NCBI GenBank assembly: GCA_963717465.1
Contig: OY970340.1
Coordinates: forward strand, 64,001 to 128,000
Reading direction: 5' to 3'
Length of the DNA: 64,000 nucleotides
From: Candidatus Bathyarchaeota archaeon
Lineage (GTDB): Archaea > Thermoproteota > Bathyarchaeia > Bathyarchaeales > Bathycorpusculaceae
Shown here: positions 53,041 through 63,341 of the stretch, in pieces
How positions within the stretch are numbered: position 1 is the first letter of the stretch
Layout of the letters: each line of letters opens with the position of its first letter
Position numbers and translations under genes: made by a program
Notes under the pieces: model-generated
What the model was told of the DNA's origin: nothing
The model's input: the letters and a program-made list of their open reading frames with translations, nothing else
Database searches by the model: none

Positions 53041-54402
53041 TTATCCCCATGTTGGGTAATCAAAACCCATATCTTTGAACTCTTTTGTAAATCGGTTATA
53101 GTGGTCCACTAATTCCTTCCTTGGTTTCAAAGTTTCCTGGTCATAGTATTCATAAAGGTTATGTGATAGCTGACCAAAGTCAAAAGCCTTCATAGCTGGT
53201 TCAAATTTCTTGATCCACTCTTTTATGAGCTTGTTGCCTTCACTTACTTTTGTTCCAGCCGCTGCTCTTGTGAATTCACTGCCAAACCTTGCGCTTATCG
53301 CAGGGAAAGTGCCTACCATCCACATTCCTTCTATCCCAGCTACACAACAAGTCATAACTGCCGCCGCTGTTCCATACCAGTCAACTTCATTCATAGGTTG
53401 ATTTAGACCAATTCCGCTAGTAAGCCATGGAGCTTTTATGTTTCTTTCTGCAGCTAAACCTACCGCTGAATTACTCCAAAAGACATCCGCACCTATGTAT
53501 TGATTATCAATGGTGTTGCTCATAGCCTGAGTGAATGAGCCATCAGCATAAGCCATCTGACCTATAGAGTGAGCCATAGATTCAAGTACTGATTCTTCTG
53601 GACCACTAATATACGCGTACAATGTAGGACTGGAACTCTGCCATGGAACAATTCCATGCTGCATAGCAAAGTAGGCAAGATTAATTCTATCAATGACTAT
53701 TCTCATGTCTTGCAGTATGTGTACTGGCATCATGCAGTTCCTAGGTGTGTAGTAGCCAGGGTCAAAAGCTTGCATCAAAGCAACCATGCTCGTTGCAGTC
53801 TCGGGAAAACCAAGTAACATGCCAGGTCTTCCAGCAGCACGCGCCGCAGCAGTCATCAGTTCACATTCAGTGTGAACCATCAGGGTTTCAGTAGGCGTTC
53901 CTCCTGTCGGTTTCTGACCAAAAGACGCCTCAATAATCGCGGGTATCATCCCGTCCGTCGTCGGTTCGCGAGCCATAAGATAAACAGCATCTCTCCATTG
54001 TCCTACGTCACTGCCCATCCAACCGCCAGCATTCAAACAGTATGGATGCTGCTTATCTTCAGGAGCTCTAATGTGCATTCTTAGTATATCTCTGCCTGTT
54101 CCCCACTCAACCTCATGCTTTCTTGTCTTAACAACTTCTTTAAGTTCATTTTCAGTGAACTTGACGAGGTGCTTAGTGTCTTTGCAATACAAACCGCATT
54201 GAACCAACAATTGTATGCCGGCTTCAAAAATAGCATCAGCCATTGCTGCATCCGACATAATTGGTTCGCCGTCAAATTTAATCTTGTAGTCTTGCACTAG
54301 TTTCTTGAGGATTGTTGGAAAATACGTGTTTTCAAATTCGTCTTCTTTCATTATTGGACCCGTTCGGGTTCTTTCTAAAACTTCCCACAATAAATGTCCC
54401 AT
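53041..54402 (-). CDS. MtmB-family methyltransferase, pyrrolysine-free (paralog 2)
   Basis: First 42 aa and last 15 aa identical to 15497..16864; AGRPGMLLGFPET. Confidence 0.88.
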   Translation of the reverse strand: MGHLLWEVLERTRTGPIMKEDEFENTYFPTILKKLVQDYKIKFDGEPIMSDAAMADAIFEAGIQLLVQCGLYCKDTKHLVKFTENELKEVVKTRKHEVEWGTGRDILRMHIRAPEDKQHPYCLNAGGWMGSDVGQWRDAVYLMAREPTTDGMIPAIIEASFGQKPTGGTPTETLMVHTECELMTAAARAAGRPGMLLGFPETATSMVALMQAFDPGYYTPRNCMMPVHILQDMRIVIDRINLAYFAMQHGIVPWQSSSPTLYAYISGPEESVLESMAHSIGQMAYADGSFTQAMSNTIDNQYIGADVFWSNSAVGLAAERNIKAPWLTSGIGLNQPMNEVDWYGTAAAVMTCCVAGIEGMWMVGTFPAISARFGSEFTRAAAGTKVSEGNKLIKEWIKKFEPAMKAFDFGQLSHNLYEYYDQETLKPRKELVDHYNRFTKEFKDMGFDYPTWG

Positions 54403-54616: not shown

Positions 54617-54730
54617 GATAATTAAGTTAAATCATAAAGCAATTTCAGCTTTCGACACAAAACGGAAATAATTAGCCCATTGATAACAAATATTGTTGCA
54701 TTTCAACTTTTTTTTTGGCACAATGTGCAA
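54617..54730 (-). promoter_or_regulatory. Promoter/operator module copy 1 (upstream of mtmB2)
   Basis: attaagttaaatcataa / gacacaaaa / ttgcatt / cacaatgtg with conserved spacing. Confidence 0.7.
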
Positions 54731-56182: not shown

Positions 56183-56836
56183 TTAAGTTTTGCCTACGAG
56201 CATTCGTGCTTTTTTGATTGCGTCGCCGCAGTCTGCACCCCAAGTATCAGCCTTAATCCGCTTGCAGAAATCATCAGTCATCGGAGTACCGCCAACAAGC
56301 ACCTTATACTTCTTACGCAACCCACGCTCAACAAGCGTATCTACTAATGCTCTCTGATACGACATACTGCTAGTCATCAACGCACCCATAGCAACAATAT
56401 CAGCATGAACCTCTTCAGCCTTCTTCACATAGTCCTCGGTTGGAATCTCTTCACCTAAGTCATAAACGTCAAAGCCATCGGTACGCAACATGTCAGCAAT
56501 CAAGTTCTTGCCGATGCTGTGGATGTCACCGAAAGCCGTGCCAATTACGACTATGCCTTTTGCCTTTGGCAGCTTGTCTTTGGGATACTTTTCTTTGAGA
56601 TAGTTAACTGCAGCAGTCATCGCGTTAGCAGCCATAATCACGTAGGGTAGAGGATATTCAAAGCGGCCAAAACGGTCACCAACCTCTTTGATGCCAACAG
56701 ATAAGCCTTTCTCGATAGCATCCATAATCTCCAGCTTGTTCTCAACAGCTTCTTTTGCCGCTGCAACAGCCTTTTCCTCATCATAGTCAATGATTGCTTT
56801 AGCGAGGTGTTCAAGTACTTCAGCTTTAGTTACCAT
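56183..56836 (-). CDS. Corrinoid protein, MttC/MtmC family
   Basis: GL..GI.EVG..F, GTAFGDIHSIGKNL, GALMTS, VGG. Confidence 0.95.
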   Translation of the reverse strand: MVTKAEVLEHLAKAIIDYDEEKAVAAAKEAVENKLEIMDAIEKGLSVGIKEVGDRFGRFEYPLPYVIMAANAMTAAVNYLKEKYPKDKLPKAKGIVVIGTAFGDIHSIGKNLIADMLRTDGFDVYDLGEEIPTEDYVKKAEEVHADIVAMGALMTSSMSYQRALVDTLVERGLRKKYKVLVGGTPMTDDFCKRIKADTWGADCGDAIKKARMLVGKT

Positions 56837-56861: not shown

Positions 56862-58451
56862 TTAGAATCTTGCGCCTGTGCCTGATTTGTCTATTGTGTA
56901 GCCGCCGATCTGGTACATTTTATCGTATCTGGCTATGATTGCATTCATTCTGTCTGCTACTTCTTTTGGTGGCAGTGGAGCAGGGAAGTCTTTAATGATC
57001 TTCTGGGTTAAAGCGTTTGCACGATCATCCATGCATTTCTTGTCCTCGATCCATCGTAGATATTGTCTAACTTCCCACAAACCGTAACCGTGACGCATCG
57101 GAGCGAACATTAATTCCATCATATTTTTCACTGTATCCTTGTCCTTCATGAAGTCGCCTCTGGGACCCTTATTAAGCCACCCTTCAGGTTGGTAACTCTT
57201 GGCTGAAAAGTCAACGTCCCTGAAATACCACTTCATTATTCTAATCATTTCAGCGCATATAGCATAACCCATCATGTTGATTCCGTTTGGACCTACGGTT
57301 GTGGACCATTCTCCTGTCTGATCAGTACCGTTTTGGAATGCATTAAGCAAATGCCAACTCATCATGCCGTTTTGCGTATCAGAACCACCAGCGCCAACCG
57401 ATCCTACGGCTTGGCCAGGCCACATCGTAGCTTTTGGTCGACTGTAATTGCGGTGCCAGAAGTTCACGTGAATAGCAAGTGCCTTACTAAATATTTCTTC
57501 AGTGGTTGCTAATTGCTGAGTGTATGGGTCCATAGGCATGACCAGATCGTAAGTCATAACTGGGACATGGCCTTTCCCAACTCCGTTCAATCCCAAACTT
57601 AAACCTACTGACATCGATAAAGCTGCGGCAACAGTAACTGCGTAAGCTCCCGTTAAGCTGCATGGACCTTGGAATCCAGGTATGCAAACATCTGTGTAGT
57701 CTATAAGCAGAGGTCTGCTCTTCGCCCAGCCTTCTAAAGTTCCGCTCATTCTGTCACTTGTTTTTTGGCCGTAAACTAGACCTGGTGTGTCTCCATGGTT
57801 AGTTATGAATGGTCTCTTCGCAAGCTCATCAAATCCTCCGAGAACCTCAGCGGCTAAATCAGTGTAACATTCAATATGATCAATTGCGTCAATATGCCAA
57901 ATATGCTTTGTAGTGCATTGAATAGTACTGTTGAGATCATGAGTATCCACTGGCAAACCAGCCTCAGCCAAATCCATAGGTAAGTATATGGGGCTAGTCA
58001 TGTCATACTCGGGGAAGTACTCAACAACTTTTTGCTCTTTCCAGTTGTCAGCATCTACTCCATCTCGGAATTCAAATAGTCGTGTATCAGGATTCCATTT
58101 TGCATAAAGGGCCATTATGCCGAAAGCTCCAACAAAGACATTGTTGCTTCCTGCTTGCATAAAGCAGTCTTCTTTAGGAGCCCTACCTGGCAGAACCAAG
58201 TTGCTCGGCACTGCGTCTATGCCTTCGACTGCAATAGCTTCAGGAATTTTTACGATTCCCTTCTTCTCATCAACAACGGTGCAACCTATGTCTTTGTAGA
58301 TTTTTTGAAGCTTAGGTGTGAGACCTCCAACCCCAACTCTTTCTAATAGATAAACTGCGGCTTGATGTATTGACATTAGTTCTTCTCTCGTCGCTATAGG
58401 CGGAGAAAATCTCTTAGGTATATTTGTTCCAGTTCTCATTTTTCTTTTCAA
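56862..58451 (-). CDS. Trimethylamine methyltransferase MttB-family protein, pyrrolysine-free, divergent
   Basis: IH.A...LLE.VG, V.IP, G..GP.SL.G, D.Q.G, GP.G.F....T, P.PLP; no amber codon. Confidence 0.85.
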   Translation of the reverse strand: MKRKMRTGTNIPKRFSPPIATREELMSIHQAAVYLLERVGVGGLTPKLQKIYKDIGCTVVDEKKGIVKIPEAIAVEGIDAVPSNLVLPGRAPKEDCFMQAGSNNVFVGAFGIMALYAKWNPDTRLFEFRDGVDADNWKEQKVVEYFPEYDMTSPIYLPMDLAEAGLPVDTHDLNSTIQCTTKHIWHIDAIDHIECYTDLAAEVLGGFDELAKRPFITNHGDTPGLVYGQKTSDRMSGTLEGWAKSRPLLIDYTDVCIPGFQGPCSLTGAYAVTVAAALSMSVGLSLGLNGVGKGHVPVMTYDLVMPMDPYTQQLATTEEIFSKALAIHVNFWHRNYSRPKATMWPGQAVGSVGAGGSDTQNGMMSWHLLNAFQNGTDQTGEWSTTVGPNGINMMGYAICAEMIRIMKWYFRDVDFSAKSYQPEGWLNKGPRGDFMKDKDTVKNMMELMFAPMRHGYGLWEVRQYLRWIEDKKCMDDRANALTQKIIKDFPAPLPPKEVADRMNAIIARYDKMYQIGGYTIDKSGTGARF

Positions 58452-58496
58452 TCTCCCGTTATTTATTTGAATCTGTAAGTCTAAGTCGCCTTGTTA

Positions 58497-58610
58497 GGTA
58501 TTTAACTTAAATCATAAGCGATTCTCTTCTTCTGCTACAAAACTTGTCTGCCCACAGAAATAACCATCAAGATTGCTTCATTATGAGACGTTTTTTAATA
58601 CATTGTGCAA
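58497..58610 (-). promoter_or_regulatory. Promoter/operator module copy 2 (upstream of mttB)
   Basis: ggtatttaacttaaatcataa / gctacaaaa / ttgcttc / tacattgtgca. Confidence 0.7.
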
Positions 58611-58776
58611 AATTTTTTTTGGCTTTTAACGAGAAAAGCAGTAAGACGCGATTAGTGAAAGAAGTCTTCAGGAAAAAAGTCTTGCGTAACACCAGGCGTT
58701 TTCAGTATATAAACACATTCGGCTTCTAAGCGACATACAAAAATTAAGAAAATAAAAAGGGGAGTGTAGTTGTTTT

Positions 58777-61092
58777 TTATGGTCCAATAGGTCCGATGTT
58801 GGCTGAGTACACTTTTGCAAGATTAACTTTGAAGCACCAAGCTCCAAGTTCAGGACTAAGCTGCTCTGGACTATCTGGCACTGTAACGTTGATGTTCCAG
58901 TCTGCCCATCCATAAAGTGTTGGTTCCTCAGCTGGTAATTCAGGACGCCACCAGCCATGCTCGGGTGAAACGATTTTTGGATTTACTCCGAAGTCGTAAC
59001 GTACTGTCTGCATGCATCTGCCAAGCGGCGTCTCAATGTAAATCCATTCGCCATCGCCAATGCCCATGTTACGAGCCGTCAGTGGATGCATTTTTACACG
59101 TGGAAACGGACGCAAATGACGCATCAATGTTAAATGTCGATGTTCGCCATGCTGTGCTTCTTGGAATCTGGCTCCACTGCACATAATCAACGGATAATCT
59201 TTTGCAATATCAGGCGCACTTACCGGAGTCCAAGCGCACTCCACATAGTACGGCAGAGGATCAAACCCAAAGTCCTCCAGAATCGTTGAGTAGAATACAA
59301 CTTTGCCTTCAGGGGTTCCGAAGCCTCTAATCAATCCAGTGGTTGGATCAATTTGCTCGTACTTCTTGAACGTGGGGTTCCATGGTGGTACACCTTTCCA
59401 TTCGCCTATAACTTGCTTACGTGTCCAGCCTACTGGCTCATAGAACCAATCTTGGAACTGCTCTAAAGTCTTCCATTTCCAAACTCTATCGATTTTTTCG
59501 TTACCCAACATTTTAGCAGCAATGTGTCGGAATATTACCGCGTCGTCTTCTAAGTCCCACAATCCCGGTATCTTTTGAGCTACTGCACGATCGCCTGCAA
59601 TCTCAAACTCGATTGATCCTTGACATGAAATGGTTGCATATCCAGAAGGTCTCTCGAATTGACTAGTACCAGGCAGCACATAATCTGCTAACATGGCCTC
59701 AGGTGTCATCGAAGCGCATTCCACATAAACGAACAGTTCAAGCTTCTTAAGAGCTTCATAAATCTTCTTAGTGTTCGGATAACCTCGCATTGGACCTATT
59801 TCACCAGCCAACATCGCCTTAACAGGGTAAGGTTTTTCCGTCAAAATTGCCTCTATCGTTGCAGGCCAATTTGGAGCAATTGGTCCGGTATGTGGACCAC
59901 CCTTCCAATAGCCTTTGTCCATTCCTGCCTCAACAAGCGCTGCACCACCTGGCATCGTTAGCATCTTATACTTGTCCGACCCTATCTGTTTCTCCATTAT
60001 GCCCATATCAGTTTCATTAGCACAATCTGCAGCGGCTTCAGCACCCGAATAGAACTTGGGTTTTTGGTGCAGATATTCTCCGCCTTCTATGTCTATGTTG
60101 CCTGTTAACGCGGGCAGCATATATTTTGATCGAACGTTGTTTAATGAGTTCCTGCCTGCCGATTCGATTGCATAACCGAATGGGAAAGTGCATGGACTGT
60201 TTTTCACTACCCACCTAGCTGCCTCTCTGATTCTCTCGGCAGGAATCCAAGTTATTTCCGCAGCTTTCTCAGGAGTATACTGCTTGGCTCTTTCTTTGAG
60301 CTTGTCAAATCCAAAAGTCCACTTCTCCACGAAATCATGATCGTACAAGTCTTCTTCGATGATCACGTTTATCATAGCCATATTTAGTGCAGTGTCAGTT
60401 CCAGGCCTAATCGCCAACCACATTTCAGAAAGTCTAGTTGTTTCCGTATATTTTGGATCGACATTGAGCATTTTTACGCCAGCCTCTATTCCTGCAACAA
60501 ATCCTGGCCAAGAATACGTCCAAGATTCACTTGGGTTTGTGCCAGTTGTAAAGATACCCTTTGTTTTACCGGGAGTTATCATTGCATACGTTAATCCCAC
60601 GCCGTAGCCTAATCCTAAGGCTTGGTACGTGGGTCCAGCTCATGTGGTAGCTGCAGCAGAACCCCAGTTTGGGGAGCCTATCAACATACAGAGTTGATAC
60701 AGTCCCAAAGCAAGGTTTGCGGCTCGACCTGTGCCGTGGAATCCGCATACGGATTCGCCGCCATTCTTTGCTATGATTTCTTTTAGTTTATCAGATATTT
60801 CACTAATTGCTTGTTCCCAAGATATTTTCTGCCATTTGCCTTCGCCACGCTTGCCTATACGCTTCATCGGGTACATTGGCCTATCCTTATGATAAATGTA
60901 CTCAACACCATACTTCCACTTCTGACAATAAGGACCAGGATTAAATGGACTATCCCAATCAGGCTCAATCTTTGTGATTTTTCCGTTCTCAACCGTCTCG
61001 ACAAGTTGGCAGGAACCAGTACTGCAAAAACCGCAAACGCATCTATGAATCCCATCGAAACTCTTTGGATCTTCAAGTTTTTCACTCATCAT
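58777..61092 (-). CDS. Cytoplasmic Mo/W-bisPGD oxidoreductase (DMSO reductase superfamily, acetylene-hydratase-like architecture), 771 aa with in-frame TGA at codon 151; candidate selenoprotein
   Basis: ORFs 60640..61092 and 58777..60600 share a frame and are separated by one TGA plus 13 sense codons; CGFCSTGSC..C Fe-S motif, RGEGKW..ISW, IRPGTD, ADYVLP, TPEGK, C-terminal molybdopterin-binding domain. Confidence 0.85.
60596..60633 (-). other. Candidate bacterial-type SECIS stem-loop inside the CDS
   Basis: UGA-GCUGGA-CCCACG-UA-CC-A-AGCCU-UAGGAUU-AGGCU-AC-GG-CGUGGG. Confidence 0.6.
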
Positions 61093-61166
61093 TCTATCTC
61101 CTATTTTCTCTTTAACCCATTTTTATTGTGCTTTCAACACAAGCCTTAACATATGCGGTCTGATTA

Positions 61167-61279
61167 CTATTTAAAGTTGAATTATAACCGTTTTTTGCTT
61201 TTGCTACAAAAATAGGAATTATCATAAAATAGCAGGGACACTTGTCGCATTATGAATAAAATTTTGATACAATGTGCAA
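61167..61279 (-). promoter_or_regulatory. Promoter/operator module copy 3 (upstream of the oxidoreductase)
   Basis: tatttaaagttgaattataa / gctacaaaa / tcgcatt / tacaatgtgca; adjacent atatgcgNtctgat shared with copy 1. Confidence 0.7.
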
Positions 61280-61434
61280 TTTCCTTTTTTCTGGTTTGCA
61301 TTGCAAAACAAAACAAGTACTAAACACAATTCAACAACACTATTCTTGGATCTTTCCGTTGAACTATTAAACAAAAGATGAAAGCGCTAAAAAAACCTAA
61401 TTCACACCCATAGATATTGAGTCCTTAACTTAAG

Positions 61435-61562
61435 AAATTGACAACACAACAGCTAGTGGCTGCAGGAAATTAGGAGATACGTTAGTATCTACCTGTAGCC
61501 ACTACCAAGGCTATAGGAAAGAGGGATTAACTTTCCTATAGCCATCTACCTAAAGGTGAATA
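61435..61562. ncRNA. Candidate structured RNA/palindromic element (two GGCT-core hairpins)
   Basis: Stems at 61454-61504 and 61509-61543; flanks aaattgacaac and acctaRaggtgaata shared with 62331-62405. Confidence 0.45.
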
Positions 61563-61755
61563 AATTTTGTTATTCTGTACGAAGCATCGTTCGCCTATCT
61601 TGCCTGTATTTCACATTAAATTCTCATGGACTGCGTAGTGCTTGGGGATGCCGTGATAGCTTGATGCCGAGCCCTCGTTTACCGTTGTTGGATGAGACAA
61701 TCTGTCCTTGATTTTTACTCTTTCAGTTTTACTTTTTTATTATCAATTGCTCTGT

Positions 61756-61866
61756 GGATATTTAAATTAAATTATAAGCTGACTTTGAGTTTCGCAACAA
61801 AAAAAGAAATTTCACCCAATCATCATTTACATAATTGCATTAAAGCATCATTTTTAGCACAATGTG
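61756..61866 (-). promoter_or_regulatory. Promoter/operator module copy 4 (orphan)
   Basis: ggatatttaaattaaattataa / gcaacaaaa / ttgcatt / cacaatgtg. Confidence 0.65.
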
Positions 61867-62446: not shown

Positions 62447-62560
62447 GGATATTTAAGTTAAGTCGTAAACCGTTTTTGGGTTTTGCTACAAAACACGAAT
62501 ATAAATTTAATCAATATCAATTTAATTGCATTAATACAACATTTTTTAACACATTGTGCA
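62447..62560 (-). promoter_or_regulatory. Promoter/operator module copy 6 (orphan)
   Basis: ggatatttaagttaagt / gctacaaaa / ttgcatt / cacattgtg. Confidence 0.65.
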
Positions 62561-62762
62561 AGTCGCTTTAACGTTCCTCCGATTAAAAGAAACAGAAGAT
62601 AGAACAGAAATTCAAAGCGGAATTGTAAAGCAAAGTTCAGCTTAATGCTTGAACTGTCACACTAAGCAAATTACTAAAAATAGTAATATTTGGCGTTATG
62701 CACAAAAGACTCACTATTCGCCAATTTAGCCATTAGTAGAAACTATTATCTCGTCAGCGTTT

Positions 62763-63341
62763 TTAAGAACGGGATTTAAGGGGTTTTCGAGTTGAAATTT
62801 CAGGTTGGAATAAAGCATTCAAGCTTCGCAATGAGAACGGCCTTGGAAACTTATTGCCTGTGCGGAACATAACGCTACGTGTTTCCACATGTGGTCGCTG
62901 AGGTAATAACAGTGTTTCTTTTTGCACTTCCTTAGACAATTCTACGAAACCATCATAGTTCTTATGCACAGATATCATGACCCAGTTCGTTGATTCTAAG
63001 CCTTGATCCTCTATAGCGCAAAGCACTTCAGGATGTCTCTGCATTAATTCACGAACTTTGCTAGTTTGTTCTGGTGTTATCACTTCAGTAGTTGAGGCAA
63101 ATGTAAATACGATAACATCTAGCCCCATTTTGTACAAGTTAGGGATTATAGTGTACTCTTTTATGTAACCATCCTGCTCCAGCTTCCTTCTCCTCCTAGA
63201 CAATGTCGTGTTACTAATTCCTAAAATTCTAGCAATTTCTCTATCGCTTTTACCGCCTAGCGCCATTAAGGCAAATAGAACTTTCAGGTTTTCCAAGGCT
63301 TTTCTATCTAACGTATCGTGCGTGCTCAAAAACTTATTCAT
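62763..63341 (-). CDS. Lrp/AsnC-like regulator (paralog of 54833..55441)
   Basis: LKVLFALMALGGKSDREIA...NTTLSRRRRKLEQ.GYIKEYT. Confidence 0.88.
   Translation of the reverse strand: MNKFLSTHDTLDRKALENLKVLFALMALGGKSDREIARILGISNTTLSRRRRKLEQDGYIKEYTIIPNLYKMGLDVIVFTFASTTEVITPEQTSKVRELMQRHPEVLCAIEDQGLESTNWVMISVHKNYDGFVELSKEVQKETLLLPQRPHVETRSVMFRTGNKFPRPFSLRSLNALFQPEISTRKPLKSRS

Follow-up and report, generated by a model that had tools for sequence, protein, structure and literature searches.

A predicted selenocysteine enzyme of the acetylene hydratase-like branch in a Bathyarchaeon, with a candidate recoding hairpin inside the coding sequence

We analyzed a 64,000-nucleotide stretch of the genome of a Candidatus Bathyarchaeota archaeon (contig OY970340.1 of assembly GCA_963717465.1, positions 64,001 to 128,000; hereafter the window) and found on its minus strand a gene for a predicted molybdenum or tungsten (Mo/W) enzyme with a single in-frame UGA, which very likely encodes selenocysteine (Sec) at the position of the metal ligand. 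A first-pass annotation of this DNA had described two open reading frames (ORFs) as one frame broken only by TGA at 60640-60642, and that description was exact: the frame 61092..58777 (minus strand) comprises 771 codons, and the TGA, its single interruption, separates an ORF at 60640..61092 (150 amino acids, ATG start) from a second ORF in the same frame at 58777..60600 (607 amino acids, GTG start). The codons around the interruption are ACC ACA TGA GCT GGA CCC, with TGA at 60642..60640 on the minus strand. Translation through the UGA yields 771 residues with U at residue 151, reading ...GSPNWGSAAATT-U-AGPTYQALG... or, in longer form, ...GSAAATT-U-AGPTYQALGLGYGVGLTYAMITPGK. The features that carry the argument are as follows.

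58777..61092, minus strand: predicted gene for a Sec-containing bis(pyranopterin guanine dinucleotide) (bisPGD) Mo/W enzyme of 771 residues; ATG start at 61092, TAA stop at 58777-58779
60640..60642, minus strand: in-frame UGA, predicted Sec151 and predicted Mo/W ligand, from alignment with the ligand Cys of acetylene hydratase and Sec140 of FdhH; TGA in 11/11 paralogs
60925..61035, minus strand: N-terminal [4Fe-4S] motif, Cys20, Cys23, Cys28 and Cys56, then Lys58; the cysteines are invariant in the eight intact paralogs
60596..60633, minus strand: candidate Sec recoding hairpin within the coding sequence, starting 6 nucleotides (nt) after the UGA

The protein carries the Pfam domains Molybdop_Fe4S4, Molybdopterin and Molydop_binding, each above its cut-off, and with all three present, including the N-terminal Fe4S4 domain, it is a member of the dimethyl sulfoxide (DMSO) reductase superfamily (bisPGD, MopB). 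NCBIfam returned sub-threshold matches only (PhsA, 245 bits; Fdh-alpha, 228 bits), which places the protein outside every named equivalog. The top solved structure was acetylene hydratase (2e7z; E 1.5e-102, 347.1 bits, query residues 18-755), followed by thiosulfate/polysulfide reductase (2vpw) with 172 bits. In the 2e7z alignment, U151 paired with the Cys that follows GSPNW, which we take to be Cys141, the tungsten ligand, allowing for a three-residue offset in the chain. A second alignment placed U151 in the column of X in V-X-H-G-P of E. coli FdhH (PDB 1aa6), which is Sec140, and the same search gave Cys in this column in three other formate dehydrogenases. The earlier proposals that the UGA occupies the Mo/W-ligand column, and that its U-A-G-P corresponds to the U-H-G-P of FdhF, were thus upheld, since X-H-G-P of FdhH aligned with U-A-G-P here. 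By these sequence comparisons, we place the protein in the acetylene-hydratase/catechol-dehydroxylase-like branch of the superfamily.

Acetylene hydratase of Pelobacter/Syntrophotalea acetylenicus (2e7z) and this protein share the three Pfam domains, the N-terminal [4Fe-4S] cysteines, the lysine and tryptophan that are K58 and W191 here, and the ligand column after GSPNW; neither has a twin-arginine translocation (Tat) signal or a partner subunit. Cys20, Cys23, Cys28, Cys56 and Lys58 align with the cluster cysteines and Lys48 of acetylene hydratase. We found no Tat motif in the protein and no conserved electron-transfer partner beside the gene, so the enzyme is probably cytoplasmic and single-subunit, as acetylene hydratase is. 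The active sites differ in that Cys141, Asp13, Ile113 and Ile142 of acetylene hydratase correspond to Sec151, Ser24, Arg123 and Ala152 here. Asp13, which lies next to the second cluster Cys, is the catalytic residue of acetylene hydratase, and its replacement by Ser had been noted in the first-pass annotation; Ile113, Ile142 and Trp179 (the last kept as Trp191) are part of the hydrophobic substrate ring. Arg123 is invariant in the eight intact copies, which suggests an anionic substrate. With Sec in place of Cys141 and Ser24 in place of Asp13, defining features of the active site are changed, and the protein therefore appears to belong to the acetylene hydratase branch yet not to be the enzyme proper. 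Sec formate dehydrogenases (FdhH, 1aa6) and FwdB are alike in using Sec as the Mo/W ligand at the homologous column, but FdhH lies in another superfamily branch, scoring 135.5 bits with the full-length query where acetylene hydratase scores 347.1, and has a His after its Sec that is absent here. The portion of PMC10100899 available to us gives a Sec ligand only for FwdB, FdhG and formate dehydrogenases of the cytoplasm, and Cys for acetylene hydratase.

The host genome (one contig, 3.05 Mb, 40% G+C, 88% complete) holds 11 copies of the gene at 42-81% identity, each with one TGA; eight are intact and three disrupted. The TGA column is shared by 11/11 copies in the context GSPN(F/W)..-U-(A/D/F/Y)(G/A)P, which argues that the TGA is not there by chance. 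Between sampled copies, the number of synonymous substitutions per site (dS) was 1.2-2.1, and the ratio of nonsynonymous to synonymous rates (dN/dS) was 0.07-0.16 both before and after the TGA in the 6/8 pairs with finite dS; the two pairs involving copy J were saturated, and no dS could be calculated for them. These values indicate that both halves of the gene are under purifying selection. With synonymous sites this saturated, the first-pass view that a lone stop at the ligand codon is unlikely to be random gained support. The disrupted paralogs, which contain frameshifts or TAA/TAG, lie at genome positions 130829-133145, 616633-618949 and 2797280-2799584, and two extra fragments of the family lie at 1076144-1076551 and 616127-616231; the family is evidently turning over.

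The three disrupted copies speak for the idea that the gene is a pseudogene, or that an assembly error created the TGA, and that translation simply stops there; moreover, public reads do not reach the TGA site. We consider this the least probable of the readings weighed here, and very unlikely, because the TGA column is kept in every copy despite saturated dS, purifying selection is strong on both sides, the TGA falls at the metal-ligand position and the genome encodes a full Sec machinery (below). Reassignment of the code is likewise very unlikely: TGA terminates 350 of the 1381 ORFs of at least 250 codons, and recoding must therefore be local rather than genome-wide. Another way to accept the stop is to let the locus encode two polypeptides: an FeS protein of 150 residues, terminated by the TGA, and one of 607 residues that begins at GTG 60600. 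Both ORFs exist under translation table 11 and public gene calls give fragments of ~596-607 amino acids, but the 13-codon stretch from the TGA to the GTG is conserved at protein and nucleotide level, the metal ligand would be lost, and the chain runs unbroken through this region in the Cys homologs as well as in acetylene hydratase; we regard the split as highly improbable.

Homologs outside this genome have Cys where the 11 copies have UGA. Alignment-based scans of genome and metagenome contigs yielded homologous loci at no more than 45% identity, all with Cys. Among 111 genome loci covering the column, 91 had Cys and 2 had TGA, both of them copies from the host genome itself; the remaining 18 show Cys 1-4 residues upstream in the printed context and are alignment slips. 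Of 78 metagenome loci, 67 had Cys and 0 had TGA, and the other printed contexts contained Cys within a few residues. The Cys/UGA alternation that the first-pass annotation had asked for was therefore seen, with TGA confined to the host genome's copies. A single-protein scan of genome contigs returned no close relative with DNA; close relatives elsewhere were found as protein fragments of 560-607 amino acids at 63-91% identity from other NCBI contigs. A phylum-wide search matched 31/301 genomes, the host included, at E <= 1e-40, none of the others with TGA, and the enzyme family was matched in 0/6 genomes of the same genus.

In a tree of 145 rows, the eight intact Sec copies formed one clade with a Shimodaira-Hasegawa-like approximate likelihood ratio (SH-aLRT) of 100, nested among Cys sequences. 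The root of this tree is arbitrary; it was built without acetylene hydratase, the characterized dehydroxylases and the three disrupted copies, and it leaves out 60 of 196 candidate ORFs that aligned over no more than 550 residues. The topology fits a single Cys-to-Sec switch followed by expansion. An expansion of this kind recalls the catechol dehydroxylases (Dadh, Cldh and others) known from Eggerthella and Gordonibacter, which also occur as many paralogs; here 7/11 copies have a winged-helix (HTH_24) regulator of ~190 amino acids nearby. The homolog set includes Gordonibacter and Eggerthellaceae loci at 28-34% identity, but in this tree without characterized dehydroxylases they fall in clades other than the Sec clade, and the dehydroxylases themselves use Cys. 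According to the accessible part of PMC7028382, catechol dehydroxylases are the nearest relatives of acetylene hydratase, are expanded per genome and occur 'even in Archaea'.

A set of genes for the synthesis and delivery of Sec is present in the genome. Two nearly identical tRNA-Sec genes with anticodon UCA scored 71.8 and 61.8 bits; SepSecS (400 bits) adjoins the first, and SelD (240 bits) carries its own in-frame TGA in the motif HGUSCK. There are two PSTK-SelB fusions of 732 and 730 amino acids, 54% identical to each other, the second of which adjoins the second tRNA-Sec. The fusions have the architecture KTI12/PSTK + GTP_EFTU + D2 + aSelB_III, and residues 276-727, the SelB part, align with archaeal SelB (4ac9) over residues 19-478 of 482, whereas bacterial SelBs match only to about residue 300; the C-terminal winged-helix (SECIS-binding) extension of bacterial SelB, which reads the Sec insertion sequence (SECIS), is absent. 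The search for Sec machinery suggested in the first-pass annotation thus recovered tRNA-Sec, SelB, SelD and the PSTK/SepSecS route. The machinery is partly duplicated, at genome positions 845693-846923, 951636-954940 and 2827783-2829725, with one fusion clustered with SelD. ARAGORN also reported, at genome positions 904785-904882 (minus strand), a tRNA-like gene of 98 nt whose anticodon has four bases (ccgg) and whose identity it left unassigned, possibly an intron-containing tRNA.

The UGA could instead be decoded as Cys, through Sep-tRNA-Sec and SepCysS, or by some other near-cognate reading. The available text of PMC8762117 discusses cross-talk between SepCysS and Sep-tRNA-Sec in archaea without SepCysE, but the same text proposes that the PSTK-SelB fusion blocks such cross-talk, and SelD and SepSecS are present and intact here; we judge Cys decoding very improbable.

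The relatives of the PSTK-SelB fusion at ~70% identity are named Candidatus Bathyarchaeota or Bathyarchaeia, in agreement with the earlier assignment of this DNA to a probable Bathyarchaeon. That annotation had also placed the enzyme in a lineage with no established Sec use, and here the outcome is divided. Reviews do omit the lineage: as far as the accessible text goes, a 2026 review names Methanococcales, Methanopyrales and Asgard archaea as the only archaeal users of Sec (PMC13188914). However, the lineage cannot be called free of Sec reports, because PMC8762117, in the part we could consult, reports Sec-encoding machinery including a PSTK-aSelB fusion in 'diverse Bathyarchaeota', and the available part of PMC9499178 likewise lists PSTK-aSelB fusions and tRNA-Sec in Bathyarchaeota. 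The system of Mukai et al. (PMC8762117) has the identical fused architecture; it differs in that the accessible text does not contain 'SECIS' and contains 'selenoprotein' once, while our host genome has two fusions and two tRNA-Sec genes. Within the order, the trait is patchy: SepSecS occurred in 3/61 genomes, host counted, and in 0/3 same-genus and 0/7 other same-family genomes searched, which suggests gain by transfer or repeated loss. The host genome, at 3.05 Mb, is larger than the 1.5-2.4 Mb of the order-level sample.

Three points weigh against the Sec reading as far as we have described it. It is drawn from DNA sequence alone; the two public DNA runs that contain parts of the stretch (shares 0.17 and 0.10) have no contig over 60548-60799, and no RNA run was found to contain it; and the 11 copies are paralogs of one genome, so their counts are not independent. 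The proposal that the UGA encodes Sec in a 771-residue selenoenzyme is nevertheless supported by the ligand column, the TGA in 11/11 copies, the Cys homologs and the machinery.

Downstream of the UGA, the mRNA is predicted to fold into a hairpin whose lower stem (CCCACG/CGUGGG) is separated by an internal loop from the upper stem (GCCU(U)/(A)AGGC), which is closed by a 7-nt loop, UAGGAUU. The hairpin was found in 11/11 copies, with a spacer from the UGA of 6 nt (7 nt in copy J). Over 52 nt, the minimum free energy in the 11 copies was -16.0 to -22.2 kcal/mol, compared with a median of -7.0 for 287 in-frame-TGA candidates that have a coding signal on both sides and were ranked by coding score plus hairpin energy. 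When the peptide was kept and codons were resampled by genome usage, the native hairpin was more stable than its synonymous recodings in 11/11 copies (z -1.56 to -3.40), and 0.3-7.7% of recodings were as stable as the native sequence. The same test on 155 Cys homologs gave a median z of -0.10, with 12% at or below -1.5, 5.8% at or below -2 and 0.6% at or below -3. Pairing was likewise specific: 89% of 154 cells were paired, against 23-47% with the partner slid, and 5/14 hairpin pairs had changed on both sides. In four of five measures, 0-1 of 500 shuffles reached the observed pairing values, figures that are inflated by the relatedness of the copies. Finally, in codon columns with an invariant amino acid across seven close copies, the 15-codon windows just after the UGA were the two most synonymously conserved of 587; mean pairwise codon identity was 0.831 in the 15 codons after the UGA versus 0.567 in the rest of the gene, and 5/9 codon columns after the UGA were fixed versus 58/379 elsewhere.

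Because stability, the recoding test, its Cys control, pairing and synonymous conservation agree, these computations indicate that the hairpin is under selection as RNA and is linked to Sec codons. We further think it likely, though well short of secure, that the in-gene hairpin is the recoding signal. In this it would resemble the bacterial SECIS of E. coli fdhF, a coding-region hairpin that directly follows the UGA; the available parts of PMC9499178 and PMC13188914 describe the bacterial SECIS as a coding-sequence hairpin downstream of the UGA. The system differs in its PSTK and SepSecS, in an archaeal SelB without C-terminal SECIS-binding domains and in its 6-nt spacer.

Hairpins were also found after other UGAs of the genome. 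The strongest occur in an hdrA-mvhD fusion gene of 854 codons (genome 1519920-1522484, minus strand), which has two in-frame UGAs in the contexts DCSIU and CNWU, followed in both cases after 6 nt by hairpins of -25.8 and -22.8 kcal/mol, respectively. Homologs of hdrA in two other Sec-capable genomes of the order (G204 and G319) have Cys at both positions and are therefore uninformative about the hairpin. An additional in-frame UGA at genome position 2823439 (minus strand; ..DFMMSU GCPMGH..) is flanked by coding signal, has a fold of -19.6 kcal/mol downstream, and may represent a further selenoprotein.

Several observations speak against a recoding role of the hairpin. Much of it is already dictated by the peptide that follows U, since synonymously recoded versions have mean energies of -8.8 to -14.2 kcal/mol. 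Copy J keeps its hairpin only through a one-base shift of the 5' arm, which means that 3/6 lower-stem pairs are broken in the common register. The fold downstream of the SelD UGA is weak (-9.6 over 70 nt). The SelB part is without the extension by which bacterial SelB reads a SECIS, and a small conserved hairpin in the 5' untranslated region (UTR) may instead be the signal.

Archaeal SECIS elements are placed in 3' UTRs in the accessible text of PMC13188914. Here, a likely terminator follows the gene closely:

58739..58762, minus strand: T-rich run, likely archaeal terminator, 15-38 nt after the stop codon

Since this run begins 15 nt past the stop, there is no room ahead of it for a 3'-UTR SECIS. 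The 325-nt downstream spacer showed no structure beyond that of shuffles (z 0.19), and Rfam over 57800-61800, with E up to 10, gave three chance-level matches and no SECIS family. By fold, T-run and Rfam, then, no archaeal 3'-UTR SECIS was found, in a survey that did not include a dedicated archaeal-SECIS pattern search. An inverted repeat, UUGUG-N7-CACAA, lies at 61126-61143 (minus strand), ~30 nt before the start codon, with a conserved TTATAAT..TTAAATA block upstream of it; several paralogs have the same repeat.

These results bear on the main alternative to the hairpin as the recoding signal, namely that the UGA encodes Sec but the in-gene hairpin is a mere enhancer, like the Sec codon redefinition element (SRE) of human SEPN1, which slows termination, with the true SECIS elsewhere, for instance in the 5'-UTR repeat just described. 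A stem-loop downstream of the SEPN1 UGA stimulates read-through, according to the available part of PMC2248747; a SelB that has no bacterial SECIS-binding domain, and the recurrence of the small repeat upstream of several paralogs, also speak for this alternative. Yet the repeat pairs over just 5-6 bp and the 5' leader as a whole only marginally beat shuffles (z -1.51, with 17/200 shuffles equal), while the 3' UTR is short and unstructured, the next ORF in copy F beginning ~40 nt after the stop. An SRE-type enhancer is thus a serious possibility that we nevertheless consider rather unlikely.

The explanation that we favor, and in which we have high confidence as a whole, combines a Sec151 enzyme, an 11-copy Sec clade, the archaeal route to Sec and an in-gene hairpin mark. 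The gene would encode one 771-residue cytoplasmic, probably single-subunit enzyme carrying a [4Fe-4S] cluster in its N-terminal part and a bis-pyranopterin cofactor of Mo or W with Sec151 as the protein ligand, and its 11 copies (eight intact, three disrupted) would form a Sec-using clade inside an otherwise Cys-using branch. Sec-tRNA would be made by the archaeal route, presumably from SerRS to PSTK to SepSecS with SelD, and delivered by the archaeal-type SelB fused to PSTK. We infer that the UGA is marked locally by the mRNA hairpin 6 nt downstream and not by a 3'-UTR SECIS. More tentatively, the enzyme would not hydrate acetylene, and may act on an anionic or aromatic substrate tied to the neighboring corrinoid modules, such as the products of demethylation.

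The neighborhood in the window that prompts this last suggestion contains the following genes.

56862..58451, minus strand: MttB-superfamily methyltransferase homolog, 529 amino acids, full-length, no in-frame TAG; downstream neighbor
56183..56836, minus strand: corrinoid (B12-binding) protein of a methyltransferase module, from domain matches
53041-54402, minus strand: MtmB-family homolog, 453 amino acids, full-length, no in-frame TAG, from domain matches
62763..63341, minus strand: winged-helix (HTH_24) regulator, upstream of the gene
61262..61279, minus strand: operator-like motif TTGCACATTGTATCAAAA, 170-187 nt upstream of the start codon

The MttB- and MtmB-family homologs here are non-pyrrolysine members. 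In addition to the HTH_24 regulators, an MttB-like protein with a corrinoid protein accompanies four of the 11 copies and an MtmB-like protein three (this gene included in both counts), old-yellow-enzyme-type flavoreductases four and short-chain dehydrogenases three. The 18-nt motif TTGCACAWTGTRYYAAAA has seven matches in the genome, all on the minus strand and all between genome positions 118730 and 176545. Those in the window (61262-61279, 58593-58610, 54713-54730 and 62544-62561, minus strand) precede this gene, the MttB-like gene, paralog H and the MttB-like neighbor of paralog H. The motif is likely a shared operator or promoter element, and its presence before both the Sec gene and the MttB-like gene suggests that the two are co-regulated. 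A role on aromatic or methylated compounds is plausible, although the substrate proposal depends only on neighbors found at 3-4 of the 11 copies.

In the literature searched, which did not extend to subscription journals or bioRxiv supplements, we found no account of this selenoprotein family or of an in-gene signal in these archaea, and a coding-sequence Sec hairpin seems to have been described for bacteria, not archaea. The family has been invisible in annotations because gene callers split its genes, leaving public relatives as ~600-residue fragments. The use of Sec to bind Mo or W, known from formate and formylmethanofuran dehydrogenases, would now extend to the acetylene-hydratase-like branch. 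Whether Bathyarchaeia with a PSTK-SelB fusion generally mark their Sec codons by a coding-sequence hairpin 6 nt downstream is, in our estimation, evenly balanced. If they do, this would be a third way of recoding Sec, combining archaeal/eukaryal synthesis and a SelB without a SECIS-binding domain with a bacterial-style local signal, and such a signal would have permitted the Cys-to-Sec switch in this branch and its spread to 11 copies. A hairpin that acts as the recoding signal would be an exception to the textbook placement of archaeal SECIS elements in untranslated regions, and would make the evolution of Sec decoding between bacterial and archaeal/eukaryal systems testable in a new system. 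The hosts belong to a group of abundant sediment archaea whose selenoproteome is undescribed within the searchable literature, and the link to corrinoid methyltransferases hints that these enzymes may help to break down methylated or aromatic compounds in sediments.

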